Below, piece after piece: positions 14,609 through 58,755 of a stretch of 64,000 nucleotides of DNA. The stretch is from a virus. Each line of letters starts with the position of its first letter. The stretch's first letter is position 1. The translations under genes were made by a program, and so were the position numbers. The notes below the pieces were generated by a model. It searched no databases and was not told where the DNA came from. It saw only the letters and a program-made list of their open reading frames with translations. The DNA is taken from IMG/VR virus record IMGVR_UViG_3300037071_003688, one strand, 5' to 3'.

Positions 14609-14661
14609 CCACGTCCGTGTAATCCCCGGGGGCTACCATGCTGCGACATGGCCGTGGGAGG

Positions 14662-16758: not shown

Positions 16759-19700
16759 GTGGCCACCGCCACGTTCGCCAATCCGTGGCATGACGAAATA
16801 GGTCGCTTCGCGCCCAAGGGAACCGGCACGAAGTTCGGCGCGACGCAGGACGAGATGCGGTCTCTGTTCGAGCCGGTGCGTCCGCTCGTGGACGTCCTCG
16901 AAGGCGCCGGTGCGAAGACCTACCTCGTGGGCGGCTCGGTCCGTGACCGGCTGCTCGGCATCGACGCCAAGGACATTGACATCGAAGTCCACGGGCTGAC
17001 CCCCGACGAGACCATCGCACTGTTGAAGGAACGGGGCGCCCGCGTCGATGAGGTCGGCAAGGCGTTCGGCGTGTTGAAGGTGACATTCGACGGCGAGACC
17101 CACGACTTCTCGTTCCCCCGCACCGAGGTCAAGACCGGCGAAGGCCACACCGGCTTCGATGTCACCGTCGACCCGAACCTCGGCATCGAGCAGGCGCTCG
17201 CCCGCCGCGACTTCACCATGAACGCGCTCGCCGTCGACTCCGACGGCAACATGGTCGACCCGTTCGGCGGGGTCGCTGACCTCAAGGCCGGTGTGCTGCG
17301 CCACGTCGGCCCGGCGTTCTCAGAGGATCCGCTCCGCATCCTGCGCGGCGTCCAGTTCGCCGCCCGCCTCGGCCTCAAGTTCGACCCGGAGACCGCCAAG
17401 CTCGCCCACGACCTGCTGCCCGAGTTGGAGAACATCTCGACGGAACGCGTGTGGGGCGAGTTCGAGAAGCTCGGCGGTAAGGGCGTCTCGATGGAGGCCG
17501 GTGTCCAGGCACTCAAGGACGTCGGTCTCGACACCCGCTACGGCAACGTCCACTTCGACGGCGAACCGAACCTGACCGGTCTCACCGGCGACCATCGCGC
17601 CGCCGTCGCGCTCACCGCGATCGGCGTCGACCCCCGCCAGATCGGAGCGCCGAACACCGTCTCCCGCACCATGCGCGACGTCAGCCAGGCGCTCGCGTTC
17701 ACCGGCGACCAGGCCGCATCCCGGACCGCGGCCCGCGAGTTGAAGTACGGCACGTTCGAGGACGCCGCCCGGATCGCAGGCCCAAACGACAACGTCGACC
17801 CACGTGTCCTCACCGGCCCACTCCCCGGACTCGTGACCGGCAACGACGTGATGGCCCGCGGTGTGCGCGGCTCAGCGATCGGCGAGGTCCTGCGCGCCGT
17901 GCAACAGGCCCAGGACAACGAGACCATCGTGACCCGCGAGGACGCGCTCGCCTGGCTCGACAAGCACGCCACCGCCGCTATCCGCCGCTCCGCCGCGTTC
18001 GTGAATCCGTGGCACGACGAGGTCGGACGGTTCGCCCCGAAGGGAACGGGACGCCGGTTCGAGCCGCGCGGCGGCGCCGACGCCCAAGCACAGGCGCTCG
18101 CAGAAGCGATGGCGACACGAGCCGAGTTGAACGGCGGGTTCACATTCGACCCGCGCGGCAACCTGTTCATCAAACCCGATCCGTCGCTGCCCCGCGAGGA
18201 ACATCGCGGCGCTGTCGCCGTGCCCGGCCATTCGGCGATCATCACGATGGAAGCCTTCCAGGACCCGACACGTGGCAAACAGTTCATCCGCGACTACCTC
18301 GACCAGCACGCCGAAACCATCGCCTCGCAACCGGACATCTTCATCGGCGGCTGGCACGACCGAGCGCACGGCGAGGTCGTGCTCGACCTGTCGCAGGTGC
18401 GCCCCCTCGATGAGGCGATCAAACTCGGGATCGAACGCGGCGAACAAGCGATCTTCGATCTCGACAGCGAGGAAGACGTCCCAACTCACGGGACAGGCGG
18501 ACGCGAGAACGTCAAGATAGTTGACGCATCGGGTCAGGGTTTGGTACGATTCAGTCATGGCAGATACCGCGGACCACCGCCAGCAGGCGCCGGACGTAAC
18601 GGTACGTCCGGGCGACCTGGAAGGCTGGGCGGACAAGTCCGAGGAGGAGAAGCAGGCGATCGTGGACGCCATGTACGAGGGTCTGAGTTCGCCAACCCCT
18701 GGCACGACGAGATAGGCCAGTTCGCGCCGAAAGGAACCGGCTCGACCGGGAAGGGCCGCTCCTCGAAGGCGGAGGAGGCCGCAGCGGCGAAGCTCGCCCG
18801 GGCGAAGGCCCGCAAGGTCCCGAAGCCGACCGAGGACGACGTGATCCAAGGCCAGGTCGACGCCCTCCTCGCGCGTGAGGGTTTGGTGCGCGCCGGTGGC
18901 GATCGGCGTGGCAACAACACGGCCCGGAAGAAGCGCGCCAAGGCGCTCGCCGCCGAGTTCGGCGACGGCACGACCTGCGCCTGCCCGGACTGCGGGCAGC
19001 GCATCGCGGCCGACGCGGCAACCGCCGAGAAGCTCGGCATCGACGCGCTCACGCAGGACAAGATCCTGGTGGGCACGTTGGGTGGCTCCTACAAGATGGA
19101 GAACCTGATCCCGACCTGCCCGCCATGCAACCAGTCGCGCGGCGACCGGGAGGGCATCGGTGTCGTCGGCGACGTGCGCCAGACGTGGGGATCAGCGGAA
19201 CGGTTCACGCGGACGGTGGTGCGTCAGCACGGCGACGCCATCGCTCAACGCTTCCAGGAGCGCCGGTCGGCGATCATGAAGCGCAAGGGGATCACGTGGG
19301 AGGAGCACATCGCCGAGAACCCGGACGCGCTCCCGCAGGACTTCGATCGGCTACGCCGCCCGGTCGGCGGGAACTTCGCCGTCGACGGCTGGACCCCCGG
19401 GGAGATCGTCACCGACTGGCTCGATCGTGTCGCCGTCAACGGCCACGCCGTCGACCATGAACTTCGTGTAGACGATCCCGTTCGAGTCGACTTCCCAGGT
19501 GAGCAACTCACCCTCGACCCCTGGGTCACCGACGATCGGGTTGTCGAGGTCATCGGGGGTGTCCCACCCGAACCGCTTGGCTCGCACGATCGTGCCGTCC
19601 TCAACCACAGACCGCAGCGTAGCGAGTTCGGCAACCCGTGGCATGACGAGATCGGTCAGTTCGCGCCGAAGGGCACGGGCACCAACTTCGCCAACATCGC

Positions 19701-22008
19701 CCGTCGCGCGGACGAAGCGGAAGCGGCCGGATCGCAGATCTCAGAACTCGACCTTGAGCAGGCCGCACTGCTCGATGACCGGCTGCGCGAGTTCGGGAAG
19801 GCGATGGGCAGCGACTTCCAGAACGACGACGGCGTCAGGCTGACCCATCACGCACTCGACCAGCGGCATGGGCGTGGGACGATGAACGGACTCGCCGCCA
19901 CCAACCCGGATGGCGTGGTGCTGGGCGCGATCGCCTACAACAAGAACCCCGGCGACTACCACATCGAGTTCCTCGGCTCGACCGGTCTCGTCAAGGGCGT
20001 CGGTTCGCAGTTGGTGATCCCCGTGATGGAACGGGCCGCAGCCGATGGGGCAAAGGTGACACTCAAGGTCGCCGGGACAAAGAGCGCCGCCTCGTTCTGG
20101 GAGTCGCTCGGCTTCGAGCGGGACTGGGAGAGCGCCACCGGCGCCACCATGCAGCCCGCCGACGTGCAGGCATGGGTGGCGAATCTCAACCGCGAACGCG
20201 AGGGTGTCTTGGTCGGCGCAGGCGCAGCACCAGAAGGATGGGATCCCGACGACGACCGCTGGGCTGCCCACGCGATCGAACTCGGGCTGATGTCCATTGT
20301 CGCCTCCGCGGCGCAGTTCATGAACCCGTGGCACGACGAGGTGGGTCGGTTCGCGCCGAAGGGGACCGGGCGCAAGTTCGGTAAGCACGTCTCGTGGCAT
20401 GTCGGCTCAAACGGCTACGAGGTGATGCACAACGGGAAATGGGTCCGGACGCCGGAAGCCATCAAGCACTACGGCGCGCTCGAAGTAGCGCAGCACATGT
20501 CGCCGCTCGAAGCCCGTCAACTCCGTGAGGAGTTGGAAGGCCAGACGATGATCGACCTTCTCAATGACACGGACGTTCAGTACAAGGCAACGGCATCGCT
20601 GGCGGTCCTGACTCACGACCCGAACTTGCACGGCAAGGAAGGTTTCGAGCATCTTCAACGTCAAGTCACCTTCGCCAAAGAGGCCGACCTCGGGCTGGTG
20701 ATGCAGTTGTACGCCGCAGAGCAGTTCGCCTCATGGGAACACTCCGGGGTCGACATCGCCCTGTTGAAGGAAGCCACGCAGGCGCACATGCGCGGTGAGA
20801 TTGACGCCGCCTCACTGTCACGGATGATCACCGAGCAGTACGGGATCACGGTCGAATCGGGCGCCGTTGGCTGGTTCAACCGGGCCTGGCAGATCTCCGC
20901 CGTCTCCCACGAATCAACTGCGATGCAGATCCAGATCGCCGAGCAACGCGGTCTAAGCGCAGCCGATGCGGCGATGCGCGACTACGTCGGCGACTCGACG
21001 CTGGACAAAGCCAACGATCTGACGTGGTCGATGGGAGCGACGATCAACGCCGTGACGTCGGCTCACATCCGCAACACTGAGGAGAAGCTGACCCAGGCCC
21101 CGGAACTGGCGTTGCCGACGATCCACCGAGGCTTGAAGGGTGAACAGTTCACCAGCATCCAGGCCGGTGACACGGTCCAGTCGAACCCCTTGTCGTCGTG
21201 GTCGTTCGACCCGAACCAGGCCGAGCACTTCGCCACCAACTTCATCGACACACAAGGGATCGTGATCACCACCGAGTTCAACCCGGCCAACGTGCTCACC
21301 ATCAGCGACATCAGCGGCATGGGATCACTGGACGAGCGAGAAGTGATCATGATCGGCGAACCGGTCAAGGTCACCCGCGCTCGTCTTCCAACGAAGCCCA
21401 GCGGTTGGGCAGTGATCCCGGAGAACGTGTACCTGATTGACACCCCGGAGAACGTCGACTGGATCACCCGCGAACCCGACGAAGCTCTGACGGCATCGGC
21501 GGCCAAGTTCGCGAATCCGTGGCATGACGAGATCGGACGTTTCGCGCCGAAGGGTCAGGGCAGCACGTCCGGCGGGCTGGACAACGAGGAGGCTGACGCC
21601 GAGTTCGAGGAGAAGTACGGCAACGAACGCCGATCCGGCGACGGCGACTGCTTCGAGGTCGGTTTGCACTTCATCCACTCCATCCCTCGCGGCGAGGAGG
21701 ACCGCTACAAGCTGTGTCACGGCGTGCCCGAGGGCCAAGGCCCGATCGAAGGCGTCCGCTTCGATCACTGCTGGATCGAACGAACCGACCCGCTCCCCGA
21801 GACCATGACCCCCGAGCAGCGGGCGATGTTCGAGCAGTACGAGATGAACATCACCGTGATCGACAAGTCGAACGGCAACGATGTCGAGATGCCCCGACTG
21901 CTGTACTACCAGTTGGGCAGCATCAATCCTCGCGACGTCCGCCGCTACACACCAGACGAAGCCCGCCGCGAGGCCGTCCGAACCGGGGTTTACGGGCCGT
22001 GGACATAG
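16759..22008 (+). CDS. polyprotein 1 (6 tagged modules): CCA-adding tRNA nucleotidyltransferase / unknown domain / HNH / GNAT / ADP-ribosyltransferase-like / papain-like Cys hydrolase
   Basis: YLVGGSVRD..KDIDIEV..RRDFTMNA..EDPLRILR; CPDCG..GGSY..EN....CPPCN; IEFLGS..KGVGS..FWESLGF; HRG..SSWS..EREV; GDCF..HCWIE; six NPWHDE.G.FAPKG tags. Confidence 0.9.
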   Translation: MATATFANPWHDEIGRFAPKGTGTKFGATQDEMRSLFEPVRPLVDVLEGAGAKTYLVGGSVRDRLLGIDAKDIDIEVHGLTPDETIALLKERGARVDEVGKAFGVLKVTFDGETHDFSFPRTEVKTGEGHTGFDVTVDPNLGIEQALARRDFTMNALAVDSDGNMVDPFGGVADLKAGVLRHVGPAFSEDPLRILRGVQFAARLGLKFDPETAKLAHDLLPELENISTERVWGEFEKLGGKGVSMEAGVQALKDVGLDTRYGNVHFDGEPNLTGLTGDHRAAVALTAIGVDPRQIGAPNTVSRTMRDVSQALAFTGDQAASRTAARELKYGTFEDAARIAGPNDNVDPRVLTGPLPGLVTGNDVMARGVRGSAIGEVLRAVQQAQDNETIVTREDALAWLDKHATAAIRRSAAFVNPWHDEVGRFAPKGTGRRFEPRGGADAQAQALAEAMATRAELNGGFTFDPRGNLFIKPDPSLPREEHRGAVAVPGHSAIITMEAFQDPTRGKQFIRDYLDQHAETIASQPDIFIGGWHDRAHGEVVLDLSQVRPLDEAIKLGIERGEQAIFDLDSEEDVPTHGTGGRENVKIVDASGQGLVRFSHGRYRGPPPAGAGRNGTSGRPGRLGGQVRGGEAGDRGRHVRGSEFANPWHDEIGQFAPKGTGSTGKGRSSKAEEAAAAKLARAKARKVPKPTEDDVIQGQVDALLAREGLVRAGGDRRGNNTARKKRAKALAAEFGDGTTCACPDCGQRIAADAATAEKLGIDALTQDKILVGTLGGSYKMENLIPTCPPCNQSRGDREGIGVVGDVRQTWGSAERFTRTVVRQHGDAIAQRFQERRSAIMKRKGITWEEHIAENPDALPQDFDRLRRPVGGNFAVDGWTPGEIVTDWLDRVAVNGHAVDHELRVDDPVRVDFPGEQLTLDPWVTDDRVVEVIGGVPPEPLGSHDRAVLNHRPQRSEFGNPWHDEIGQFAPKGTGTNFANIARRADEAEAAGSQISELDLEQAALLDDRLREFGKAMGSDFQNDDGVRLTHHALDQRHGRGTMNGLAATNPDGVVLGAIAYNKNPGDYHIEFLGSTGLVKGVGSQLVIPVMERAAADGAKVTLKVAGTKSAASFWESLGFERDWESATGATMQPADVQAWVANLNREREGVLVGAGAAPEGWDPDDDRWAAHAIELGLMSIVASAAQFMNPWHDEVGRFAPKGTGRKFGKHVSWHVGSNGYEVMHNGKWVRTPEAIKHYGALEVAQHMSPLEARQLREELEGQTMIDLLNDTDVQYKATASLAVLTHDPNLHGKEGFEHLQRQVTFAKEADLGLVMQLYAAEQFASWEHSGVDIALLKEATQAHMRGEIDAASLSRMITEQYGITVESGAVGWFNRAWQISAVSHESTAMQIQIAEQRGLSAADAAMRDYVGDSTLDKANDLTWSMGATINAVTSAHIRNTEEKLTQAPELALPTIHRGLKGEQFTSIQAGDTVQSNPLSSWSFDPNQAEHFATNFIDTQGIVITTEFNPANVLTISDISGMGSLDEREVIMIGEPVKVTRARLPTKPSGWAVIPENVYLIDTPENVDWITREPDEALTASAAKFANPWHDEIGRFAPKGQGSTSGGLDNEEADAEFEEKYGNERRSGDGDCFEVGLHFIHSIPRGEEDRYKLCHGVPEGQGPIEGVRFDHCWIERTDPLPETMTPEQRAMFEQYEMNITVIDKSNGNDVEMPRLLYYQLGSINPRDVRRYTPDEARREAVRTGVYGPWT
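18511..18550 (+). promoter_or_regulatory. internal promoter within polyprotein 1
   Basis: GTCAA-N5-TTGACG-N18-TACGAT with TGn extension; ATG at 18557. Confidence 0.7.
18557..18715 (+). CDS. overprinted small acidic protein (52 aa) in another frame of polyprotein 1; candidate immunity protein
   Basis: own promoter and leaderless ATG; normal GC3 codons, while the polyprotein frame here is G/R-rich and shadow-like. Confidence 0.6.
   Translation: MADTADHRQQAPDVTVRPGDLEGWADKSEEEKQAIVDAMYEGLSSPTPGTTR
19351..19644 (-). CDS. antisense overprinted acidic protein inside polyprotein 1; candidate immunity protein
   Basis: DGTIVRA...VEGELL...YTKFMVDG..VD.DTIEPV resembles the C-terminal half of ORF 57217-57552; plus-frame codons here are atypically A/T-ending; start uncertain. 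Confidence 0.55.
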   Translation of the reverse strand: MPRVAELATLRSVVEDGTIVRAKRFGWDTPDDLDNPIVGDPGVEGELLTWEVDSNGIVYTKFMVDGVAVDGDTIEPVGDDLPGGPAVDGEVPADRAA

Positions 22009-25000
22009 CGCCGACCATCCCCGTCCCGACCACAGAGGCAGAGATCGGAACCCTGCGCGTCCCGATCGACCCCGACGATCCGCTGCTCGCCGATCAGACG
22101 CTCGTGGCGTCGGCCGGGATCATCGCCGACTTCGAGGACTCGTACCTCGATGAACTGACCGGCGCCGTCGAACAGTCGTTGCGATCACTCCGCCAGATGG
22201 TCGTGCAACGCCTCCGCGCGCACGCCACCATCGCGAAACCGATCGCTGCGTCGGCCGCACGCAACGGCCAGTTCATGAACCCGTGGCACGACGACCGAGG
22301 CCGCTTCGCTCCGAAGGGGACCGGCCGCGCGAACGCGATCCGGACGTGGGGCACCGACCGCAAGGTCACCATCGAGAAGTGGGTGTCGGGTCACAAGCAT
22401 TCGGTGACGACCTCGAACGGCGACGTGATCGTCCTCCACGACCACAACAACGTCCTGTCGCAAAGCCCCGGCGGCGAGCAAGCCATCAGCGACTTGTTGA
22501 ACGGCGCCGCCGACGCACATGACCTGTGCCCGGGGATGAACGTCCCGCAGATCATGGTCAAGAACGTCGACGGGCTGATCGCCGACATGGCCGCGCTGCA
22601 TGACATGCAACGCGTCGAATGGGAACGGCTCCGCAACGTCGGCGCGTTCGTCACCGGCAACAGCCCGGACGGCAATAAGGCGCCGGGCTGGATCTTCGTC
22701 AACCCGGACCGGCTGCACAGTGAGCAGCTTTACGCCCAGGATGACATGCCCGCCATGATCGCTCTCGGCCCGGCCCGCTACAAGGTGATGCACGAGTACG
22801 GGCATCTGCGCATGACCCAAGGTCTCGACTCGGTGTTCGCGATCAACGATCAGTTCAAGTACACGAGCGACTCGCGTCGCAGCGGCGGGATGTCGAAGTA
22901 CGGCAACACGAAACCGATCGAGGCGCACGCCGAGGCGTTCGCCGAATGGGCGGCACGCGGCGGCAACATCGAGCGCGGCCCGAAGGGCCAGTTCCTCACC
23001 GACATCGACTATGTCGTCACGTCGTACGCCAACGCGTTCGGGTGGGGCAAGGACCTCGAACAGGTCGGCCGTCCGCTCGCCGTCGCTGCCGCCGGTGGGC
23101 CGCAGGACCCGATCCCGTTGATCATCGGTGACAGCCCGGAAGGCCCGATCTACATCTACGCGGACGGAACCATCGAGGAGACGCTCGTCGCCTCCGCCGG
23201 GCAGTTCATGAACCCGTGGCACGACGAGATCGGCCGGTTCGCCCCGAAGGGGACCGGCCGCTACATCAAGGTGCTCGGCGAGTTCCCCGGCGAACCGTCG
23301 CAGGAGATGTTGGCGAACGCCGACTTCCGCTACCAGGCCGACATGGGCAAGCGGTTTACGTGGCTGTGGCAACGCACCTATCAGACGCATCGAGCGGTGA
23401 AGCAGATCGCCCGCAATCTGCTCGCCGGGAACGAGCCGTTCGACGGGGTCGATCTCAACGACCCGCTCTTGGAGCGGTACTCGAAGCCATCCCGCTTCGC
23501 GGGCGGCCCCAAGCACGAGTACAACGAAACCGATCTCCACAACGATCTGCAAGCCGCAGCCGAATGGATCCTGGTCCAGCCCGTCGAGAAGCAGCCCGTG
23601 CTCTACCGCGGGGCGATGACCGACGAATCGAAGATGGGTGTCTTCAAGGTCGGTGCTGACATCCCGCTCGACCTGGTCTCGGCGACACCGGACCGGTTCG
23701 AGGCCGCGCCGTACTCGTCACCATTCGGTTCTCCCACGTCCTACCTCGACCCGGTCCGGCTGTCGTTCCAGTTCACCGGCGCCGAAGGCACGAGCCTGCG
23801 TCCGCATGTGACCGGCAACATGAGCGACTCGAAGGAAGTCGTGATGCGGGGACGCGGCCGGATCACACGGATGGAGAAGAACGAGCACGGGATCTGGCAG
23901 ATCTGGGTCGACGCCTCGAACGCCCAAGAGGAGGCGTTGGCCGCGTCGATCGGCGACGACGCCGTGATCCTGGCGATCCTCGACCAACCGTTCCACCACT
24001 ACGACGAAACCGGCGCGCTCGTCGCCGCCGCCGGGCAGTTCATGAATCCGTGGCACGACGAGATCGGTCGCTTCGCGCCGAAAGGCACCGGCGTCAAGCG
24101 GCTCGGCCCGAAGACCCTCAACGACGACCCGACCGCCTACGACAAGGTCGATCTCGATGACATGGAGGCAACCAAGGCCAGCCTCGAAGCGTACGCCGAC
24201 CATGTGACCGCGGAACTCGCCGACATGTTCCCCGGCGAGGAACTCATCTTCGGCCTTGACGAGTATCACAAGATCGCCAAGAGCACCCGGCCCCCCGAAT
24301 ACCATGCTCAGTTTCGGCTGACGAACGCTGACGGCGAAGACGTGGCGAAGATGGCGCGGGTCATCGAGATGGAGGATGACAGCGCATTCGCTGCCGGGAT
24401 GTGGGTTGACGACTCGATGCAGGGCAAGGGCATCGGCACCGTGCTGCAAGAGGGCTTCGAGCACTGGGCGGCATCGCAGGATCTCAGTGCGATCAACGTG
24501 TTCGCCACGATGGTCGGCCGGTGGGCGTGGATGCGCGCCGGTTATGACTGGGCGAACACCGAAGCGTTCGGCGACATCGCCAACCTGCTCGGCGACGCCG
24601 ACCCAGTCGGTCGCTCATTCAGGCGGGCGTGGCAGGACGTCACCATCCCTGACGATCTACCAACGCCGTACGAGTTGTCGAACATTCTCGGTCGCAAAGC
24701 GATCCTCCATCCGCAGTTCCCGAACTGGTCGGGCACCAAGCCGCTGCGCACCCGGGCACTGGCACTCGCCGCCACCGCCATAGCGCCCCGTGAGGAGCGT
24801 CTCGCCAAGGTGCGCGAGGCGTACGCCCAGTGGTGGCCGCAGTACCCGGCCGCGGCCGAGGGCTACATCGTTGACCCGGAGGCCGAGGCCGCATGGGAAG
24901 CGTTGATGCAGGGCGGGCTGGTCGCGGCGGGGCCGTTCGATCTGGACGACTTCAACGTGATGACCGCCGAGGAGTGGGCGCTGGCGTTCGATGTCGAGGC

Positions 25001-26792
25001 AGCGGACATCGTCGGCGATGTCGTCGTGGACGCCGCCACCGGTCAGGCGCTCCGCCCCGGCCTGAACGTGTCGGACAAGATCATCACCGATCTCGTGGAC
25101 CGCCACATCGGACGGCTCCAAGATCTCGGCCCGCTCGTGCAAGCCTCACTGCGCGACGCGCTGCACCTCGCCGTCTCCAACCAGTTGACGCTCGATGAGG
25201 TCATCCGCGAGATCCAAGCCACCGGACCATTGGGAGCAACCGCGGCACGCGCGATCGCACGCACCGAACTCACCGCCGCCACGAACGGCGGGATGTTGAC
25301 CGGATGGAAACGCGACGGGTTCCCGTTCAAGCAATGGATCAGTCTTCACGACGAACGTGTCCGCCATGCGCACCTCGAAGCCGACAAGCAGATCAAACCG
25401 ACCGAGCAGGAGTTCGAGGTCGGCGGCTGGCCCGCCCAATACCCCGGCGACCCACGCCTCCCGGTGCATCTGCGCATCAACTGCCGCTGCTACATGGACC
25501 GCATCGGTGAAGATGGCACGACCATCGGCACACGGCTGGTCGACTCGACCCGCGCCACGCTGTACCGCCTCGCCCAAGAGTTGAACATTCCGGGCCGCTC
25601 GAAGATGCTGAAAGAGGACCTGTTCCAGGCGATCGACCGGTACCGCAACGGGTTCGGGTTCCAACCATTGGAGGAGATGTCCCGGGCGCAACTGCTGATC
25701 CGTGCCCGCGCGGCGGGGATCGTCGGCCGCTCGAAGATGTCGCGCCCCGAGTTGATGATCCGCTTGCGCGACCTGTCGACCGGTCGGACCCGTGACCGCT
25801 GGCTGATCGACGCCGGGCACGGCACCCGCGAACAGATCGCCGCCGTCCAAACCCAACTCGCCGCCGACATCGCCGCGCTGCACCAAGGTCCGATCGTCGG
25901 CGCCGGACCGCCACCATCAGTCGAGAAGGTCGACACGATGCGCCGCAAGGTGTTCCGCCGCTACGGCGGCGCCGACACCGGCACCGCGATGTGCGTCGGC
26001 TGCGCGGCCCGGATGCACTGGTCGAACACGACACGCTGGGAACAGGTGACGCTGATCCGGATCGACCCGAAGATCTCGTGGTCCGCCCGCAACGCGTTCC
26101 CGGCGTGCCTCGCCTGCGCCCCGAAGCTCGCCAAGCTCGGCACGGAGAAGCTCTCGGCGACGTTCACCATCGACAACTCATGGACGGCGATCGCCGCCAC
26201 GTTCACCGGCTGGGGACCGATCCTGGCCCAGTTCGCGAACCCGTGGCACGACGAGCAAGGCAAGTTCGCGCCGAAAGGCACCGGCAAGAAATACGACTCG
26301 GCGGCGATCAAGGCCAAGGTGAAAGCGTCGATGGAGGCCGGGGTCAACGTCGACCGCGTCGGCGACCCGCAGGCGACGCTCTCCAAGCTCGACGCCTGGG
26401 CCAAGCAGATGGGATCCGACTTCGACGCCGACGAAGGGGTCGGCATGATCCGCGAAGCGTTGAATGACGTCGGGGCTGGCTCGAAGTCGTTGATCGCCAA
26501 CCACAAGAACGGGATCGCCGGGATCATCTCGTACGACTACGACCCGGACAGCAAGATGTACATGATCCATCACCTCGGCTCGACCGGGATCGCCCCCGGG
26601 ACCGGCACTCGGCTGGCGACTCAGGTCATGATCCAAGCCGCGTCGAACGGTGCTGGGGTCGAGTTCGAGGCAGCCCAGAACGACACCGCTCCCGAGTTCT
26701 GGTCGTCGCTCGGCTTCGATGTTTCCGACCCCAAGCACGTCGTGATGAGTCCATCCGATGTCGGCGCCTGGATGCGAGACTTCACGGGATGA
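21999..26792 (+). CDS. polyprotein 2: MuF minor head protein carrying zincin metallopeptidase, ADP-ribosyltransferase-like, two GNAT, two Rho-N-like and a degenerate HNH-like module
   Basis: HEYGH..SKYG...EAHAEAF; LYRG..VSAT..KEVV; QGKGIG..W...GY; ARAIARTE..KQW...D.RVR.AH..YPGDP..INCRC (MuF); IPGRSKM.K.DL-like repeat twice; GTG start overlaps the preceding stop; four tags. Confidence 0.9.
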   Translation: MDIAPTIPVPTTEAEIGTLRVPIDPDDPLLADQTLVASAGIIADFEDSYLDELTGAVEQSLRSLRQMVVQRLRAHATIAKPIAASAARNGQFMNPWHDDRGRFAPKGTGRANAIRTWGTDRKVTIEKWVSGHKHSVTTSNGDVIVLHDHNNVLSQSPGGEQAISDLLNGAADAHDLCPGMNVPQIMVKNVDGLIADMAALHDMQRVEWERLRNVGAFVTGNSPDGNKAPGWIFVNPDRLHSEQLYAQDDMPAMIALGPARYKVMHEYGHLRMTQGLDSVFAINDQFKYTSDSRRSGGMSKYGNTKPIEAHAEAFAEWAARGGNIERGPKGQFLTDIDYVVTSYANAFGWGKDLEQVGRPLAVAAAGGPQDPIPLIIGDSPEGPIYIYADGTIEETLVASAGQFMNPWHDEIGRFAPKGTGRYIKVLGEFPGEPSQEMLANADFRYQADMGKRFTWLWQRTYQTHRAVKQIARNLLAGNEPFDGVDLNDPLLERYSKPSRFAGGPKHEYNETDLHNDLQAAAEWILVQPVEKQPVLYRGAMTDESKMGVFKVGADIPLDLVSATPDRFEAAPYSSPFGSPTSYLDPVRLSFQFTGAEGTSLRPHVTGNMSDSKEVVMRGRGRITRMEKNEHGIWQIWVDASNAQEEALAASIGDDAVILAILDQPFHHYDETGALVAAAGQFMNPWHDEIGRFAPKGTGVKRLGPKTLNDDPTAYDKVDLDDMEATKASLEAYADHVTAELADMFPGEELIFGLDEYHKIAKSTRPPEYHAQFRLTNADGEDVAKMARVIEMEDDSAFAAGMWVDDSMQGKGIGTVLQEGFEHWAASQDLSAINVFATMVGRWAWMRAGYDWANTEAFGDIANLLGDADPVGRSFRRAWQDVTIPDDLPTPYELSNILGRKAILHPQFPNWSGTKPLRTRALALAATAIAPREERLAKVREAYAQWWPQYPAAAEGYIVDPEAEAAWEALMQGGLVAAGPFDLDDFNVMTAEEWALAFDVEAADIVGDVVVDAATGQALRPGLNVSDKIITDLVDRHIGRLQDLGPLVQASLRDALHLAVSNQLTLDEVIREIQATGPLGATAARAIARTELTAATNGGMLTGWKRDGFPFKQWISLHDERVRHAHLEADKQIKPTEQEFEVGGWPAQYPGDPRLPVHLRINCRCYMDRIGEDGTTIGTRLVDSTRATLYRLAQELNIPGRSKMLKEDLFQAIDRYRNGFGFQPLEEMSRAQLLIRARAAGIVGRSKMSRPELMIRLRDLSTGRTRDRWLIDAGHGTREQIAAVQTQLAADIAALHQGPIVGAGPPPSVEKVDTMRRKVFRRYGGADTGTAMCVGCAARMHWSNTTRWEQVTLIRIDPKISWSARNAFPACLACAPKLAKLGTEKLSATFTIDNSWTAIAATFTGWGPILAQFANPWHDEQGKFAPKGTGKKYDSAAIKAKVKASMEAGVNVDRVGDPQATLSKLDAWAKQMGSDFDADEGVGMIREALNDVGAGSKSLIANHKNGIAGIISYDYDPDSKMYMIHHLGSTGIAPGTGTRLATQVMIQAASNGAGVEFEAAQNDTAPEFWSSLGFDVSDPKHVVMSPSDVGAWMRDFTG

Positions 26793-29700
26793 GCTTCGAC
26801 CCGGACGACGACCGCTGGGCCGAACGCGCAGCCGAGGTGGCAGTGACCACCATGACCCTCGAACCAGGCGGCGAGTTCACCGTCAAGTTCCGGGCCACCG
26901 AGTTCAACAACCCGTGGCATGACGAGATCGGACGGTTCGCGCCGAAGGGTTACGGGCACATGGGCGGCAACAAGTACAGCCGTGAGGTCGCGGTCCCCCG
27001 CAGCGTCGAGGACGCCGCCGCTGTGTACGCGGCGATGACCCTGTACAACGCCGTCAACCGTGGAGACCCGATGCCCGCCATCCACGAAGCCCTCCACGCG
27101 CTGATCAAGACAGCCGAGGCCGCAGACCAGGACCTCATGGAACGCCTGATCAAACCGGCCGCGCGGGCAATCGGCGACAACGACATGGACACGGCGCACG
27201 AGTTGATCGTTGACGCCGACAGCGAGGTGTTCAAGCCGTTCACCGAGGAGTTCGAGGTCCCGCCACCGGAGAAGATCACGGTCACCGGCGGGCAACCCCC
27301 GGAGTCCGGCTTCGGCCCGACGATCTGGCAGACCGTCACCCCCGAAGGGCACACCATCACGTTCAACAGCCGCGGTCACACCGTGACCGACGAACAGGCG
27401 TACACGATCCTGTCGGCAGCGACGACCGCGGCGCGCGCCGGGAACATGGACCAAGACGTCACCATCCAAGTCCAAGCCTCGTTCAACCGGGACACGATGT
27501 CGCGCGAGCCACTGGTGATGGGGTTCGTCGTCGCCAACCCGGACATCGGCACCGACCCGCATCGAACCGTCAACATCACACCCGAGTTGATCAACGGTAA
27601 CTTCGACCCGGGCGGGAGCACCGAGCGCATCCCGTCGACGTTGACGGCATCAGCGGCGCTCGTGGAACCGTTGCGGATCACCGTGCTGCACGAGATGGGC
27701 CACGTCTCGTTGTTCGAGGAGGCGTTCCACCGGCAAGGCGATCTCACGCAGGGCAAGGAATGGTTCAACGAGCAGATGATTCAGACGGCGAACACGACGC
27801 CGATCACCGACAAGCCGTTCATGTCGCTGTACGCCCAGGAGAACACGACCGAGATGCACGCCGAAGCGTTCGCTGAGTGGACCAACACCGGCGGCAACAC
27901 GAACAACCCGTGGGTGCTACGCATGGCCGACCAGTACGGCTGGTCGACGGGCCGCGCCGCCGAAGACCTGCCATTGGCCGCGGCAGGGGCGCCACCGATC
28001 GAGCCGTGGGTGCCGATCTGGTACTTCCCGGAGGAGCCGGTCATCCTCATCGACAGCCGCGACGGCGCCAGCTACGTGTACGGCGACGCGGCGCTCGCCG
28101 CCACCGAACCCGTTGTCGCCTCCGCCGGGCAGTTCATGAATCCTTGGCATGACGAGATCGGACGGTTCGCCCCGAAGGGGACCGGCTCCAAGTTCGACGC
28201 AGTGAGCGCGATGCAGGACGTGCAGAACGGCAAGCCGGTGTCGGTCACCGGCGTCGAGGCCGTCGACCTCGCGTTGGAGATGGCCCGGCTTTACCATCCG
28301 ATCGACATGACCCTCGTCACGGTCGACGGGTCGCACATGTTCAGTGAGATGCGAGCGAACGGGCGGTCACGGGTCGAGATGCCGCAGATCCCCGGCAAGT
28401 TCCACCCCGCCTTCGAGGAGCACCTGCGCGAGTTGGGTGTGACCATGACTCCGGAGACGATCGACCCCCGCGAGTTGCACGGCACCCAATCCGAGTTGGA
28501 CGGTCAGGCAGTCGGCAACATGATCCAGTCCTACCGGGACGGCGGCTTCAACTTCACGTCGAAGCCGTTGGTCGTCTCCTCCGACAACCGGATCCTGGAC
28601 GGTCACCATCGTTGGGCCGCGGCGGCGATCGAGTCCGCGGCGTGCGGCGGCTGCATCGAGATGCCGATCATGCGTGTCGACCTGCCGATGAGCGAACTGC
28701 TCCACGTCGCCGACGACTTCGTGGACAGTCTCGGCATCGTCCGTCAGGGCCACGGCGAGCACGGAAAGCACAGCCCGCAGCCGCCGCCCCTGCACGAGAA
28801 GATCGCCGCGGCTGTCATCCCACCATCGCAGAATGAGCAGGTGGAGTTCGAGTACGCGACCGACACCGATGACGGGATCACCGACGAGCAACTCGCCGAC
28901 CTGCCACACGGCGACGGCTCCGCGTTCGAGGAGGGGGAGGGCGTGGTCGCTTCCCCCGCCTCGTTCGCCAACCCTTGGCACGACGAGATCGGACGCTTCG
29001 CGCCCAAGGGCACCGGCACGAAGATCGGCTTCGACGCCGACGCCGCCTCCAACCAGTTCGCCGACGATCTCGCCACACTCAACGCCAACGCCGACGCGAT
29101 GGCCGAGCCATACCGCATCCACTACGAACGCGGCGGCGAGAAACAGTCGACGTTCGCTCAGGCCCGCGACGAGTACCTCGCCTACGGCTCATCGGAGATG
29201 GACCGCCAACTCCGCACCAACGGCGACAGCACAGTCAAGGATCCGGCGCACCGGCGGGCGCTGATGAACGCCGTCGTGCTCGATGAAGCCATCGAACGGT
29301 CCGGTGTCGTGTTCGCCGAGGACACCGTCCTGCTGCGCGGCGTGCGCAACACGCAGGCCGGGAACCTGACGGTCGGCACCGAGTTCACCGATCCCGCGTT
29401 CGTGTCCGTGACAGCGTCACCCGGCGAAGCCGCGCAGGCGTCCGGGCAGCAACAACGCCCGGCCGGTTTCCCACCCTCGGCGAACCCGGGCACCATCGTC
29501 GCGTTGAAGGTCCCGAAGGGAACCAAGGCGATGCCGGGCGCCGAGAACGAGAAGGAATGGGTGCTGCCACGTGGCGGCACGTACACCGTGACGAACGTGA
29601 TCGAGGGCGACGGGGTCCGCATCGCCGAGGTCGAGGTGACATTCCCCGAGTCGCCGCCGGTGACGAAGGGGATCCCAACCATCAACGACTTGCTCGAACG

Positions 29701-30319
29701 GACCGCGGGGCAACAAGAACGCCGCGGCCTCGCCGCCTCCGCCGGTGGCCTCATCGTTCACGAGCGCCTCTCATGGGATCCCGCCGACATCGACGTGATG
29801 ACGAACCGCCGCCAGTTCCGGCTGATCTGGGATGCGGGTGTCCTCGCCGACGCCACCATCACGCGTGCCGCGTTCGGCAACCCGTGGCATGACGAGGTCG
29901 GGCGCTTCGCGCCGAAGGGCACCGGCAAGCAGGTCGCCGCCGAGGGCCGGGCACGTGAACTGTTGGCCGGGGAACGAATCGCGCTCGCCGATGTCGACGT
30001 GCCAATGGGAACCCCCGAACAGATCAAGTTGACGACCGACACCCGCGACGACGACGCCCTGTGGGAAACCGCCACACCGATCAAGGTCTCGGCGCAGGAC
30101 AAGTTCGTCGCATCCGAGGAATCCGTCAAGACACGACCGGTGCGCGACGTCGTGCTCGACGGCGAAGCATTCCGACCCGGCTACCCGCCCCGCCTGTACC
30201 AGTTGCCGGACGGCAGCTACCTCGTCGCTGACGGCCACCATCGAATCGTGATGCACAAGCTGCTCGGCACCCCGAGCTTCGACGCAATCGTGCTGCCCTA
30301 TCCGGAGGAGAAGCAATGA
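26789..30319 (+). CDS. polyprotein 3: zincin metallopeptidase / ParB-Srx-like / VIP2-like ADP-ribosyltransferase / ParB-Srx-like
   Basis: HEMGH..SLYA..E.HAEAF; TQ..SSD.RILDGHHRW; LLRG..DPAFVSVT..EKEWVLPRG; LVADGHHR; four tags. Confidence 0.9.
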   Translation: MSFDPDDDRWAERAAEVAVTTMTLEPGGEFTVKFRATEFNNPWHDEIGRFAPKGYGHMGGNKYSREVAVPRSVEDAAAVYAAMTLYNAVNRGDPMPAIHEALHALIKTAEAADQDLMERLIKPAARAIGDNDMDTAHELIVDADSEVFKPFTEEFEVPPPEKITVTGGQPPESGFGPTIWQTVTPEGHTITFNSRGHTVTDEQAYTILSAATTAARAGNMDQDVTIQVQASFNRDTMSREPLVMGFVVANPDIGTDPHRTVNITPELINGNFDPGGSTERIPSTLTASAALVEPLRITVLHEMGHVSLFEEAFHRQGDLTQGKEWFNEQMIQTANTTPITDKPFMSLYAQENTTEMHAEAFAEWTNTGGNTNNPWVLRMADQYGWSTGRAAEDLPLAAAGAPPIEPWVPIWYFPEEPVILIDSRDGASYVYGDAALAATEPVVASAGQFMNPWHDEIGRFAPKGTGSKFDAVSAMQDVQNGKPVSVTGVEAVDLALEMARLYHPIDMTLVTVDGSHMFSEMRANGRSRVEMPQIPGKFHPAFEEHLRELGVTMTPETIDPRELHGTQSELDGQAVGNMIQSYRDGGFNFTSKPLVVSSDNRILDGHHRWAAAAIESAACGGCIEMPIMRVDLPMSELLHVADDFVDSLGIVRQGHGEHGKHSPQPPPLHEKIAAAVIPPSQNEQVEFEYATDTDDGITDEQLADLPHGDGSAFEEGEGVVASPASFANPWHDEIGRFAPKGTGTKIGFDADAASNQFADDLATLNANADAMAEPYRIHYERGGEKQSTFAQARDEYLAYGSSEMDRQLRTNGDSTVKDPAHRRALMNAVVLDEAIERSGVVFAEDTVLLRGVRNTQAGNLTVGTEFTDPAFVSVTASPGEAAQASGQQQRPAGFPPSANPGTIVALKVPKGTKAMPGAENEKEWVLPRGGTYTVTNVIEGDGVRIAEVEVTFPESPPVTKGIPTINDLLERTAGQQERRGLAASAGGLIVHERLSWDPADIDVMTNRRQFRLIWDAGVLADATITRAAFGNPWHDEVGRFAPKGTGKQVAAEGRARELLAGERIALADVDVPMGTPEQIKLTTDTRDDDALWETATPIKVSAQDKFVASEESVKTRPVRDVVLDGEAFRPGYPPRLYQLPDGSYLVADGHHRIVMHKLLGTPSFDAIVLPYPEEKQ

Positions 30320-32595
30320 CCGCCACCTTCGCCAACCCGTGGCACGACGAAATCGGCCGCTTCGCGCCGAAAGGCACCGGCACCAAGGGCGACATTGACG
30401 ACAGCGGCGGGATGACCCGACCAGGATGGCTGGGACTGCACGCCCCCAAGAGCGCGAAGACGCTGACGCGGGTCGCACGGATCCTGGACTCCATGCCCGA
30501 GACCCGCGAAGTAGCCGACCTCGTGAAGGGCGCGGCCGAGGCCGAAGACCCGGACGAGTTCGATGCGTGGATGGAGGACGCCTTGAACGCCATCGCACGC
30601 GCTGGCGGCACGAGCGGCGAGATGCTCGACATCGAACGCCAGTTGGACGAGATCCGCCGCGCCGGGTTCACCATGCCGCCTGTCCTCACGTGGGGGATCA
30701 ACGAGTTCGCCAACCCGTGGCACGACGAGGAAGGCAAGTTCGCGCCGAAGGGCGCAGGCACGAAGTCGTCCGGCGTCGCCGCTCCCGAGGGGACCGATCA
30801 GCCGACCCAGGGCAACGAGGGCGACATCGTCTCGAAGCTCGAAGTGAAGCCGGGCGGTAACCGCTCGACCGGAGTCGACCATGAGGCGCTCGCTCAGGAG
30901 GTGATCAACGGCGGCGACATCGTCGTCAACCCGATCGACGCCGACGACGTGATCCGCAACTTCGCCGACGCACCCCAGGACGTCGTTGACTTGACCGGGG
31001 TCACGGTCGAGGGCGCCCCCAACATGTTCTCGAAGATGCGCGAGTCAGGGCGCGCCCGTACCGAGATGCCGCAGATCACCCCCGACGTGCAACCCGAGTG
31101 GTTCGACACGCTCCGCCAGGAAGGCATCAACTTCGTCGCAAACGAAGTCGACCCGGCGTCACTGTCGGCAACACAGTCGGAACTGAACGGCAAGAAAGTC
31201 GGCGGCATGATCAGGGCGATGGAGGGCGGCACGATGTCGCTCGAAGGCGACGCCCTGCTCGTCTCGTCGGACGGCCACATCCTCGACGGCCACCATCGTT
31301 GGGCGGCTGCGGCGGCGATGTCAGCGGACTGTGGCGGCTGCATCAAGATCCCGGTGATCGTGATCGACCTGCCAATCACGGAACTGGTCTCGTACGGCCT
31401 CAACTGGACTGACGCACGAGGGATCCCCCGCGCCGGGGTCGGAACGCCGAGTAAGAAGCAGGCGGCTGGAATGTCGCCGTGGATCTTTACTATGAAGGGC
31501 GTGACCTTCGCGGCCAAGAACTTCATGGAGGGCGGAACCCCCGTCCCCGAGGGCGAGTACCCGAAGTTCGCGACCGACGCCGAGGACGGCCTCACCGACG
31601 CCGACTTCGTTGGTCTGCCGCAGGGCGACGGTTCGTTGTCCGCCGCCAACGCCAACACGGCTGTCGCCGAGAAGCCAGCCGAAGGCGACGCTGTGACGGC
31701 GTCGGGCGCCCGCCGCCAGTTCGGCCTGGCCGAGTTCATGAACCCATGGCACGACGAGATCGGGCGCTTCGCGCCGAAGGGAACCGGCACGCAGTCCGGC
31801 GGATCCCACCCGCCGGTGACGAGCGGTGACGTCACCATCGAGTTCGATGACAAGGGCGAGATCGTCGTGTCCGACGAGGCGATGGCGCTCGCCAAGCCGG
31901 TCTACGAGGAGGCCCAACGCCGTGAACGGGCGATCTCCGACCGGCTGATCGAGATCGTCGGCGACCGCTCCCCGGAGCAGTACGAGGAACCACCACCGCC
32001 GCAGTTGTACGGCTTCGAGTTCCGCCGCAAGGAACAAGACAAGATCGCCGAGAAGATCGAACGGGAAGTCCTCGAAGCCCACGAGGAAGGCATCGTGATG
32101 ACCCGCGAGCAAGCCGCCGCCAAGATCAAGGACGCGGTGCGCTACACCGTTCACTACACGCAAGACGAGTTCGGCGAGAAAGCGCAAGCCGTGATCGACC
32201 AACTCGCGCAGGACAACCCGGGCGGCAAGGTCAAGAACACGTGGCCCCCCGGCTCGAACAACGTGTACAAGGGCGTCAACGTCAACGTCACCACCGACGA
32301 TGGCTACACGTACGAGATCCAGTTCCACACCCCCGAGTCGCAAGCCATCAAGGACGCCCAACACGACCTGTACAAGCAGGCCCGTGTGCTCCCCAAAGGC
32401 GACCCGCGTCGAGTCCAACTCGAAGCGCAGATGGACCAGTTGAGCAAGGGCGTCGAACCGCCGACCGGCGCGATCGAGGTTTCGACGCCAGAGCGGTGGC
32501 GCGAACGGCTGGCAGCGAGCGCCGCCCGCCTCCGCCACTTCCTCACCCAACGACACATCCTCTCCCAGACCCGACATTGGAGCGTCCATGAGTAA
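30316..32595 (+). CDS. polyprotein 4: short helical module / ParB-Srx-like / RelA-SpoT-like (small alarmone synthetase fold) nucleotidyltransferase
   Basis: ILDGHHRW; R.K......KI..IKDAVRYT..KNTW..YKGVN..EIQFHTPES..H.LY; three tags. Confidence 0.88.
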   Translation: MTATFANPWHDEIGRFAPKGTGTKGDIDDSGGMTRPGWLGLHAPKSAKTLTRVARILDSMPETREVADLVKGAAEAEDPDEFDAWMEDALNAIARAGGTSGEMLDIERQLDEIRRAGFTMPPVLTWGINEFANPWHDEEGKFAPKGAGTKSSGVAAPEGTDQPTQGNEGDIVSKLEVKPGGNRSTGVDHEALAQEVINGGDIVVNPIDADDVIRNFADAPQDVVDLTGVTVEGAPNMFSKMRESGRARTEMPQITPDVQPEWFDTLRQEGINFVANEVDPASLSATQSELNGKKVGGMIRAMEGGTMSLEGDALLVSSDGHILDGHHRWAAAAAMSADCGGCIKIPVIVIDLPITELVSYGLNWTDARGIPRAGVGTPSKKQAAGMSPWIFTMKGVTFAAKNFMEGGTPVPEGEYPKFATDAEDGLTDADFVGLPQGDGSLSAANANTAVAEKPAEGDAVTASGARRQFGLAEFMNPWHDEIGRFAPKGTGTQSGGSHPPVTSGDVTIEFDDKGEIVVSDEAMALAKPVYEEAQRRERAISDRLIEIVGDRSPEQYEEPPPPQLYGFEFRRKEQDKIAEKIEREVLEAHEEGIVMTREQAAAKIKDAVRYTVHYTQDEFGEKAQAVIDQLAQDNPGGKVKNTWPPGSNNVYKGVNVNVTTDDGYTYEIQFHTPESQAIKDAQHDLYKQARVLPKGDPRRVQLEAQMDQLSKGVEPPTGAIEVSTPERWRERLAASAARLRHFLTQRHILSQTRHWSVHE

Positions 32596-32863
32596 CACCG
32601 AGACCACCCTGTCGCCGACCGGCTGGTTCCTGCGGTCCGACGACGAGGGCGGCTACATGGCGGCGGCTCGCTTCTACGCGCCGTCGTCCATCGACGTCGA
32701 CGTGTACAACGCCCAAACCGGCGACTGGACACCGTTCTCGGGTAGCACCAACCTGTTCGAGCGGCTCCAAACCGAACCGGACTGGGAGCAAGTCTCCGAG
32801 CAGGACGCCGAGGCGTGGATCGCGTCTAAGCGAGGCGGAGTGGCACCAGGTTCGATCGGGTGA
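32588..32863 (+). CDS. small acidic protein, candidate antitoxin for the RelA/SpoT-like module
   Basis: overlaps the end of polyprotein 4; ends W..VSEQDAEAWI. Confidence 0.7.
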   Translation: MSNTETTLSPTGWFLRSDDEGGYMAAARFYAPSSIDVDVYNAQTGDWTPFSGSTNLFERLQTEPDWEQVSEQDAEAWIASKRGGVAPGSIG

Positions 32864-39611: not shown

Positions 39612-39684
39612 GATGCTGTAGCTCAGTGGAAAGAGCACCGGCTTGCGAAGCCGGTTGTCGCAGGTTCGAGTCCTGCCAGCGTCA
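39612..39684 (+). tRNA. tRNA-Arg(GCG)
   Basis: cloverleaf, anticodon arm CCGGC-TTGCGAA-GCCGG. Confidence 0.85.
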
Positions 39685-39687
39685 CTA

Positions 39688-39824
39688 CTCCACCGCAAAG
39701 GTTGGCTTAGAAGCAGCCATCCTCTAAGGAGTGACACCCGAGTCCGGACGGTCCGGTGGGAGCCAGGGAACTGGTGAGGAACCTATAGAGCCTCGTCTTA
39801 GGCGTAACAGCACATGCGGTGGGG
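39688..39824 (+). ncRNA. 23S rRNA H43/H44 (L11-binding, GTPase-associated centre) mimic with an insertion
   Basis: GGTTGGCTTAGAAGCAGCCATCCTCTAAGGAGT...GCGTAACAGCAC closed by a 10-bp stem. Confidence 0.8.
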
Positions 39825-39827
39825 CGA

Positions 39828-39900
39828 CCGAATGTGGCGCAGTTGGTAGCGCACCTGGTTTGGGACCAGGGGGTCGGGAGTTCGAGCCTCTCCATTCGGA
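39828..39900 (+). tRNA. tRNA-Pro(TGG)
   Basis: cloverleaf, CCTGG-TTTGGGA-CCAGG. Confidence 0.9.
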
Positions 39901-39977
39901 CGAGCAGTTCGGCGAGACTTGAATGACCCGCTGAAAACCCGGGGTGCGGCCCGGGCGTCGAACTGCCAGAATGAACT

Positions 39978-40050
39978 GATGGTGTAGCTCAGTGGATAGA
40001 GCACCAGCTTCCGAAGCTGGGTGTCGCAGGTTCGAGTCCTGTCACCGTCG
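39978..40050 (+). tRNA. tRNA-Arg(CCG)
   Basis: cloverleaf, CCAGC-TTCCGAA-GCTGG. Confidence 0.9.
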
Positions 40051-40118
40051 CCCAAGGCCCAGGCCCGAGTCACCAGCCTGGGACCGTCGCCGGAACGCGT
40101 GGCGGCGGGACAGAAAAT

Positions 40119-58699: not shown

Positions 58700-58755
58700 T
58701 TACACGGGTGCGGTTTCGGGTGTCCGGGCCGCATCCGCTGCAACAGGAGGATGCC

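Follow-up and report, generated by a model that had tools for sequence, protein, structure and literature searches.

Enzyme-specific acidic tails in the polyvalent proteins of a large actinophage as candidate built-in off-switch peptides

This study concerns a stretch of 64,000 nucleotides (nt), hereafter the window, from the IMG/VR virus record IMGVR_UViG_3300037071_003688, and in particular the short acidic peptides, or tails, that follow the enzyme modules of four giant genes within it. The record is 147,492 bp long and ~97% complete by estimate, and the window corresponds to its bases 5329-69328. The G+C content is 65%, there are 32 tRNA genes, and the source virus is a large actinobacterial phage. 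The four genes, g1 to g4, are consecutive, translationally coupled and located after the portal gene at 16759-32595. They encode virion-cargo polyproteins of the polyvalent / MuF class, whose GNAT, zincin and long ParB modules end in class-specific acidic tails, and three ART types also end in acidic tails. These candidate peptides of 19-43 amino acids (aa) lie within the polyprotein or open the next gene.

Organization of the polyvalent genes

14638..16752, + strand: portal protein (phrog_776, E 5.8e-84), directly upstream of g1
16759..22008, + strand: g1, polyvalent protein of 1749 aa, with CCA-adding, unknown, HNH, GNAT-A, ART1 and C-terminal modules, in this order
21999..26792, + strand: g2, polyvalent protein, with N-terminal peptide, zincin 1, ART2, GNAT+MuF+Rho_N and GNAT-B, in this order
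26789..30319, + strand: g3, polyvalent protein, with GNAT tail, zincin 2, ParB 1, ART3 and short ParB, in this order
30316..32595, + strand: g4, polyvalent protein, with a short module, ParB 2 and a RelA/SpoT-like module, in this order

The true start of g2 is the GTG at 21999, which overlaps the end of g1. Domains detected in the four genes are PolyA_pol/CCA, HNH, GNAT, Phage_Mu_F, RelA_SpoT (weak) and the ParB fold, and zincin and ART modules were recognised by motif, among them three ART-like modules. Searches of Pfam and PHROGs left GNAT-A, GNAT-B and the zincin and ART modules unrecognised. The Phage_Mu_F domain is internal to g2 and weak (25.1 bits, under the Pfam cut-off of 29.6), and g2 is the only MuF-bearing protein of the four; tblastn matched MuF-like minor capsid proteins. 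As in other polyvalent proteins, several unrelated effector or enzyme domains share one polypeptide, the genes are positioned in the head module, and zincin-like metallopeptidases are embedded. The layout is not that of MuF polymorphic toxins, as MuF is internal, there are many effector modules, and only one candidate separate gene lies downstream (32588-32863, + strand). This acidic open reading frame of 91 aa (D+E 14, K+R 5) overlaps the stop of g4 directly after the RelA/SpoT-like module, and it is a candidate for a separate immunity protein as in MuF-APK toxins.

Relatives were obtained by an exhaustive HMMER search with g3 as the query, which gave 2375 matches; those compared below carry P numbers. 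Megablast of the region against GenBank phages gave no match, and the ParB module, used in a single-protein scan of IMG/VR, gave none either. An alignment scan of IMG/VR with the GNAT, in which the tag described below was alone used as the pattern, gave one irrelevant locus. Word-based homologue searches recovered three proteins for GNAT-A, none for zincin 1 at near lengths, and the query alone for a 51-aa gene that is discussed with the zincins.

Each module of g1-g4 is headed by one copy of a tag, F-x-NPWHDE-x-G(R/K)FAPKG, with 17 copies on the + strand between 16780 and 31741 (those of g1 at 16780, 18004, 18694, 19633, 20323 and 21514). An 18th copy, at 47085 on the - strand, heads an unlinked 207-aa gene (46489-47112). 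Tag patterns were matched at 104 stretches in an IMG/VR scan, and a full-text literature search for the motif (NPWHD and variants) returned no relevant paper. Another boundary motif, (T/x)FHLQGQHDQQ(T/S)HAGG, is present in at most nine copies per protein in L012 (P0027), L013 (P0046), P0030 and P0033, and variants read LLHPRGHDGKFIEKFG (P0018) and HDAHSGKFASKGG (P0086). Tagged-module polyproteins may comprise several families.

GNAT modules and their tail

19627..20208, + strand: GNAT-A core including the NPWHDE tag; GNAT motifs A and B, with a weak profile match to solved GNATs (E 0.045)
20209..20226, + strand: site LVGAGA between GNAT-A core and tail; ALVAAGPP or ALVGAG in P0010, P0021 and P0028
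20239..20295, + strand: GNAT-A tail, WDPDDDRWAAHAIELGLMS, in cis; conserved in three other phage proteins
20296..20313, + strand: site IVASAA, directly ahead of the next tag
26232..26789, + strand: GNAT-B core, which closes g2 with no tail behind it
26789..26902, + strand: GNAT tail in trans, residues 1-38 of g3, MSFDPDDDRWAERAAEV...; predicted to bind GNAT-B

Past a linker that cannot be aligned, the tails of GNAT-A and GNAT-B are identical at 8 of 8 residues, DPDDDRWA. The peptide reads WDPDDDRWA in g1 (aa 1160-1168, nt ~20236) and FDPDDDRWA in g3 (aa 3-11, nt 26795), where it comes right after the ATGA stop/start overlap with g2. This junction is not in frame: g3 overlaps g2 by 4 nt and is read in the -1 frame, and there is no slippery site. 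A programmed -1 frameshift fusing GNAT-B to the tail was rejected, as a slippery sequence is lacking and three separate assemblies show the same stop/start overlap; the agreement of the three assemblies also speaks against an assembly error. These are the present phage (G000), L009 (Logan SRR26541668) and L014 (SRR14194070), in each of which the GNAT core ends one gene and the tail, (F/Y)DPD…, opens the next across a 4-nt overlap.

In P0010, P0021 and P0028, the same GNAT is followed by LV(G/A)AG(A/P)PEGWDPDDDRWAA(H/R)AIELGL. The module after the tail differs among these three proteins, being CCA, an unknown module and ART, respectively. A degenerate DNA pattern for DPDDDRWA gave three matches in an IMG/VR scan, all of them in stop-filled frames and discarded as chance. 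Profile comparison with solved GNATs gave E values of 0.045-0.058, aligned over motifs A and B; these motifs can be seen in the modules, which have no Pfam or PHROGs match.

The complex of GNAT-B with residues 1-38 of g3 was predicted in three runs, with interaction prediction scores from aligned errors (ipSAE) of 0.85, 0.83 and 0.85, compared to 0.02 for the best of three controls. The runs have at least 93% of their contacts in common, and the predicted local distance difference test score (pLDDT) of the partner is at least 63. Of 80 solved complexes, 58 attained this ipSAE mark, as did 2 of 110 mismatched pairs; both counts are only rough because our own alignments were used. The contacts of lowest error join peptide residues 5-14 (PDDDRWAERA) to residues 118-126 of chain 1. 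The GNAT interface segment 115-126 reads LGSTGIAPGTGT, and further contacts involve residues 151-156, 56-72 and 91-94. In the profile alignment to solved GNATs, LGSTG…G.G falls on motif A, that is, the acetyl-CoA pyrophosphate loop, and residues 151-156 are presumably the opening of the motif-B helix. The DPDDDRWA peptide is predicted by these models to bind GNAT-B and to cover the acetyl-CoA pyrophosphate loop together with the adjoining cleft.

Zincin modules and their tail

22272..23081, + strand: zincin 1 core (HEYGH ... EAHAEAF)
23082..23099, + strand: site VAAAGG between zincin 1 core and tail, within a linker of pLDDT ~33
23100..23183, + strand: zincin 1 tail (PIPLIIGDSPEGPIYIYADG), a predicted beta-hairpin
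23184..23201, + strand: site LVASAG
26903..27973, + strand: zincin 2 core (HEMGH)
27974..27991, + strand: site LAAAGA
27992..28111, + strand: zincin 2 tail (…PVILIDSRDGASYVYGD…)
28112..28129, + strand: site VVASAG

Both zincin modules have HExxH and a downstream E, and their tails share P.I..DS..G..Y.Y.D (nt ~23112 and ~28037), a weaker likeness than that within the GNAT and ParB pairs. The tail recurs in P0006, P0010, P0029, P0153, P0027, P0030, P0033 and P0046, and the combination of ALAAAG(P)P and hairpin tail is kept even in polyproteins with a different module-boundary motif, FHLQGQHDQQTHAGG. The zincin gene of L014 stops immediately past the core, and the next gene, of 51 aa, encodes …FTVIDTIDGPEYRYG…, which is the zincin tail.

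A model of zincin 1 from an 11-row alignment has a mean pLDDT of 69 and a predicted template modelling score of 0.77. The pLDDT falls to ~33 in the LAVAAAGGP linker, is 70-72 in the tail, which is modelled as a beta-hairpin, and is below 50 at the LVASAGQ end. Foldseek searches with the model (22272-23204) gave weak matches to gluzincins, namely PPEP-3, a Pro-Pro endopeptidase (probability 0.94), anthrax lethal factor and PepN. Many of the sites between core and tail read AG-P-P, and the embedded zincins might cut sites of this type (hxAAG).

ParB/Srx-like modules and their tail

28193..28732, + strand: ParB/Srx-like core 1 (DGHHRW); AlphaFold2 pLDDT >90, Foldseek matches to ParB-N and sulfiredoxin
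28850..28942, + strand: ParB 1 tail (EYATDTDDGITDEQLADLPHGDGSAF…), pLDDT 78-87 amid a low-confidence linker
28943..28960, + strand: site VVASPA
30880..31420 (approximate), + strand: ParB/Srx-like core 2
31564..31692, + strand: ParB 2 tail (KFATDAEDGLTDADFVGLPQGDGS…)
31693..31710, + strand: site VTASGA

The two long ParB modules share ATD.(D/E)DG.TD.....LP.GDGS past ~35 unconserved residues; with its first residue, the motif reads (Y/F)ATD..DG.TD.....LP.GDGS and begins at nt 28853 and 31567. An additional short ParB module is present in g3. The AlphaFold2 model of the ParB 1 module (34-row alignment) has a mean pLDDT of 84, with >90 in the core, ~54 in the linker, 78-87 in the tail and ~45 in the segment past it. 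Foldseek matched the core to the ParB-N domain of pNOB8 (probability 1.00), CTP-bound ParB and sulfiredoxin; like those of zincin 1, these matches are weak and at the level of the superfamily. Residues D156, G157, H158, H159 and W161 show no variation and R160 almost none; the module combines the fold of the ParB N-domain with a phosphate-binding motif of the DGHHR type. Ordered docking is predicted in the models for both the ParB and the zincin tails.

The ParB tail is found in ~22 of 122 ParB-like matches. Across 19 homologues, mean pairwise identity is 0.60 in the tail, 0.50 in the core and 0.25 in the linker, which ranges from 20 to 94 aa. Many tailed homologues lack the tag system, and several carry the tail at the extreme C-terminus.

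ART modules and common properties of the tails

21427..21486, + strand: ART1 tail (VYLIDTPENVDWITREPDEA), then LTASAA; conserved in P0028 and more loosely in P0030
23949..24017, + strand: ART2 tail, between the sites ALAASIG and LVAAAG; no relative of the module was found
29747..29860, + strand: ART3 tail (GLIVHERLSWD…), preceded by the site GLAASAGG; P0005 and P0059 have the ER.xWD motif too

Each of the nine tails has a net acidic composition (5-11 D+E residues against 0-4 K+R). By sequence comparison, the tail is specific to its own enzyme family for five of the six tailed module types, the sixth being ART2, which is without a relative. Overall identity within the paralogous module pairs is 41% for GNAT, 45% for ParB and 36% for zincin. 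The tails go beyond chance or recent duplication because the same ones recur in other phages, where they remain with the upstream enzyme irrespective of the downstream module. Attachment to the enzyme takes two forms, either a disordered linker with a site of the hxAAG(P)P type or a stop/start gene boundary, and most tails are then followed by an hVASAG-type site immediately ahead of the next tag. The CCA module runs directly into the boundary site without a tail, both here and in P0010 and P0035.

An earlier note on this DNA had already paired (W/F)DPDDDRWA with both GNATs, (Y/F)ATD..DG.TD.....LP.GDGS with both long ParB-like modules, P.I..DS..G..Y.Y.D with both zincins and other short acidic peptides with the ARTs, while describing the CCA module as free of them. 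Each of these pairings was recovered in the window, as was the bare CCA module. The comparison across homologues that the note called for agrees as well, with the GNAT, ART1 and ART3 tails among those that stay with their own enzyme in other phages.

A further class of modules, which are not zincins (L009:2019-3302, equivalent to module 385-812 of P0028, and module 1375-1822 of P0046), has its own conserved ending after a PLAAAGPP site, (Y/F)I.RDG..Y.P.P(L/I)(L/I)ALLAHG.W.PV. Class-specific endings therefore extend to modules outside the set of this window. The first ~40 residues of g2 (window 21999-22271; …LRVPIDPDDPLLADQTLVASAG) are conserved in P0006 and P0029. In all three phages, a peptide of this type always comes after a gene that ends in a g1-type C-terminal module (…GVYGPWT), and the two may constitute a third enzyme-tail pair that is split over a gene boundary.

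Boundary sites and the capsid maturation protease

58708..60708, + strand: capsid maturation protease, just upstream of the major head protein, with (M/L)VASAG three times and LVAAG once
61092-62930: major head protein, with ALVASGH and LAVASAI in its N-terminal third

The sites that flank the tails fall into two classes. The pattern [LIVMT][VTA]AS[AP][AGS] was found 11 times in g1-g4 against 0.08 expected, with 6 of the 11 directly before a tag, and [LIVM][VA][AG]A[AG][AGP] was found 6 times against 0.26 expected, with 3 of the 6 between core and tail. This is an enrichment over shuffles of ~20-130x, and none of 2000 shuffles reached either count, although the patterns were written after viewing the data and paralogy inflates the counts. 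The earlier note had described most of the peptides as flanked by LxAxA-type sites, and the flanking sites are indeed strongly enriched. In the split forms of the GNAT and the zincin, the hxAAG site is absent and a gene boundary occupies its place, which suggests that the working state is one in which the tail is covalently free.

Proteins that 832 actinophage records annotate as capsid maturation protease are matched by the product of 58708-60708, whose language-model features resemble those of S78/S77 prohead proteases. At aligned positions, homologous proteases carry (V/T)AS(G/A) and LVAAG. We infer that hVASAG is the maturation cleavage motif of this phage; the motifs in the protease and the major head protein are candidate maturation cleavage sites, and the protease is probably the enzyme acting at the hVASAG sites. 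The proposed cleavage of the cargo by the head protease has indirect support in the enriched site motifs, in the low-confidence linkers and in the occurrence of the same site motif in the capsid maturation protease itself.

Neighbouring genes

The 32 tRNA genes lie at 39612-55378, between the polyprotein block and the head genes, and a CCA-adding enzyme is the first cargo module (16759-17997). Directly upstream of the protease, 57563-58699 is a LigT / 2',5'-RNA-ligase-like (2H phosphoesterase) gene. Its similarity to the anti-CBASS protein Acb1 is faint and falls short of the cut-off (E 0.017).

Proposed role of the tails

The best-supported proposition, which is likely, is that each tail is a partner peptide specific to one enzyme class, docking on that enzyme and separable from it by proteolysis or by a gene boundary. 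An inhibitory effect on the enzyme is an evenly balanced possibility, and removal or untethering of the tails by maturation proteolysis is somewhat more doubtful. The explanation as a whole, built-in off-switch peptides that are untethered at maturation, is about as likely as not. An inhibitory role fits the predicted position on the GNAT, the acidic, ligand-like character of the tails and the tail-less, benign CCA enzyme. It also fits a requirement for ART, GNAT, ParB-like and peptidase activities to be silenced in the producing cell.

The proposed sequence of events would be as follows. The peptide would dock back onto its own enzyme and keep it off during synthesis and packing of the polyprotein. 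The capsid maturation protease would then cut the sites, perhaps helped by the embedded zincins, and a peptide that had been tethered at very high local concentration would thereby become free. The free peptide would escape from the capsid or dissociate by dilution after ejection, thereby arming the enzyme in the next host. By our estimate, a tethered peptide would have a millimolar effective concentration, and free peptide from one virion would be nanomolar after ejection.

The earlier note had gone further than the pairings and proposed that the tails are intramolecular antitoxins, which silence the toxic domains during synthesis and are taken off on head maturation. What stands of this is that the tails are class-specific units belonging to the upstream enzyme, that they hang on site-bearing disordered linkers or are set off by a gene boundary, and that binding is predicted for the GNAT, where the suggested co-folding was carried out for GNAT-B and its peptide (ipSAE up to 0.85 against 0.02). 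Inhibition and removal at maturation are plausible at the strength given above.

Several observations weigh against the proposal. The GNAT assignment depends on motifs and weak profile matches (E ~0.05), the family is rare, with six modules known, and the GNAT-B/peptide prediction is built on shallow alignments of 4 and 5 rows. Model memory may also contribute to the score because GNAT-peptide complexes are common among solved structures. The stand-alone 51-aa gene for the zincin tail is a single case. P0015, P0023 and P0025 keep the ParB tail without a recognisable linker site, so cleavage is not universal. Finally, the HNH module is potentially harmful too and shows no site-tail-site arrangement.

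Alternative explanations

The tails could instead be structural or activating parts of the enzymes, such as a last strand, a helix or a small subunit, that serve folding, stability or catalysis and do not inhibit. Tail conservation equal to or above that of the core is what such a part would show; the tails are also ordered in the single-chain models, obligate subunits can likewise be encoded by split genes, and some ParB homologues do without a linker site. We nevertheless consider this unlikely, as long, hypervariable, low-confidence linkers (20-94 aa) are unusual for an integral element of a fold, and a permanent element at the predicted GNAT contacts on the acetyl-CoA loop would block the cofactor. 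Even less credence is given to a role in processing or assembly, where tails would be spacers that present the sites and order the cuts, or handshakes that tie the polyproteins together so that those without MuF are packed with g2, for example by GNAT-B of g2 holding the N-terminus of g3. The enriched sites that bracket the tails agree with this, and the predicted complex of GNAT-B with the g3 N-terminus would link the MuF-bearing g2 to g3; the g2 N-terminal peptide is similarly conserved after the g1 C-terminal module in three phages. A handshake leaves the tails in cis and the free 51-aa zincin peptide of L014 unexplained, however, and a spacer alone does not account for tails that stay with their own family across phages with different boundary motifs.

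A function in capsid targeting or cargo loading, comparable to that of the C-terminal peptides on encapsulin cargo or on the HK97 protease, would suit the layout, in which a cargo domain is joined through a flexible Ala/Pro-rich linker to a short conserved peptide that often lies at the extreme C-terminus. A single signal should be enough for one capsid, yet each enzyme class has a tail of its own, and the predicted partner of the GNAT tail is its own enzyme, which makes this very improbable. A common capsid signal in the tails was accordingly ruled out; only the NPWHDE tag is shared, and with its 18 copies of NPWHDExGRFAPKG it is the better candidate for a capsid-loading or recognition signal. 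It is hardly credible that the shared tails are functionless leftovers of module duplication. The three pairs in the window are indeed paralogues (36-45% identity), but this explanation is contradicted by conservation across phages, which in the tails exceeds that in the flanking linkers and equals or exceeds that in the cores, and the tails persist when moved to another gene.

Significance

Phages that inject enzymes must make and store toxic activities in the very cell that builds the virion, which is an open problem; for MuF toxins the known answer is separate immunity genes. A short enzyme-specific peptide on a protease-sensitive linker, or in a neighbouring gene, would be a compact alternative that couples effector activation to capsid maturation. 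More broadly, and at a level of confidence that we place on the doubtful side, large actinophages may pack toxin-like enzymes as tagged polyproteins in which each enzyme is held off by a tethered pseudo-ligand peptide, with the maturation protease and the zincins cutting the tethers in the prohead and so arming the effectors, and with a gene boundary able to replace the cut. If so, head maturation would double as the arming step for injected effectors, and antitoxins in cis would be a general modular principle for enzymes delivered by virions. Off-switch tails would also make a natural set of peptide inhibitors against GNAT, ParB/Srx-like, zincin and ART enzymes, and they would provide a rule by which to locate module borders in polyvalent proteins, most of which currently carry the annotation hypothetical.

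Comparison with known systems

Peptides that are removed by a protease and thereby control activity or localisation are familiar from the pro-peptides of metallopeptidase zymogens and from Alt and the internal proteins of T4. In T4, the prohead protease cuts inside the prohead, and the removed peptide is one shared N-terminal targeting signal, unlike an enzyme-specific C-terminal partner.

The polyprotein class, the idea of activation by processing and the separate immunity proteins of MuF toxins have already been published (PMC5512222, PMC5576092). Class-specific tethered peptides, split-gene forms and the shared site motif were found neither in these two papers nor by the full-text motif search. 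Polyvalent proteins of phages and conjugative elements were proposed to be processed by embedded zincins from an inactive polyprotein to active products (Iyer, Burroughs, Anand, de Souza, Aravind 2017; PMC5512222). The present proteins are the same in being giant, multidomain and adjacent to portal or MuF genes, and in their ART, ParB, GNAT, zincin-like peptidase, HNH and nucleotidyltransferase domains. They differ in that the paper describes no tethered enzyme-specific peptides, repeated module tag or site motifs (the word 'linker' is absent from it), and in the presence here of four consecutive genes of this kind, divided into 17 tagged modules.

The MuF polymorphic toxins of temperate phages (Jamet et al. 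2017, PMC5576092; APK toxins, PMC12226406) likewise link MuF to toxin domains, including RelA/SpoT-like ones, and are neutralised by a cognate partner encoded just downstream (PMC5576092; PMC12226406). In those systems, the partner is a full immunity protein with its own gene, one per toxin, whereas the candidates here are peptides of 19-43 aa; MuF is N-terminal there and internal and weak here.

The type II pairs of a GNAT toxin and a ribbon-helix-helix (RHH) antitoxin, KacAT, AtaRT and TacAT, offer a parallel to the GNAT modules: in these pairs, the GNAT is wrapped by a short segment of its partner, in part disordered, which hinders the binding of acetyl-CoA (PMC6698736). The C-terminus of the antitoxin KacA impairs acetyl-CoA binding by the toxin KacT and thereby neutralises it in part (PMC6698736), and the loop predicted to be contacted here is the same. 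The GNATs of this phage are only distantly related to solved ones (E ~0.05), and their partner differs in being a peptide of 19-38 aa without an RHH/DUF1778 DNA-binding domain or operon autoregulation, which follows its enzyme instead of preceding it.

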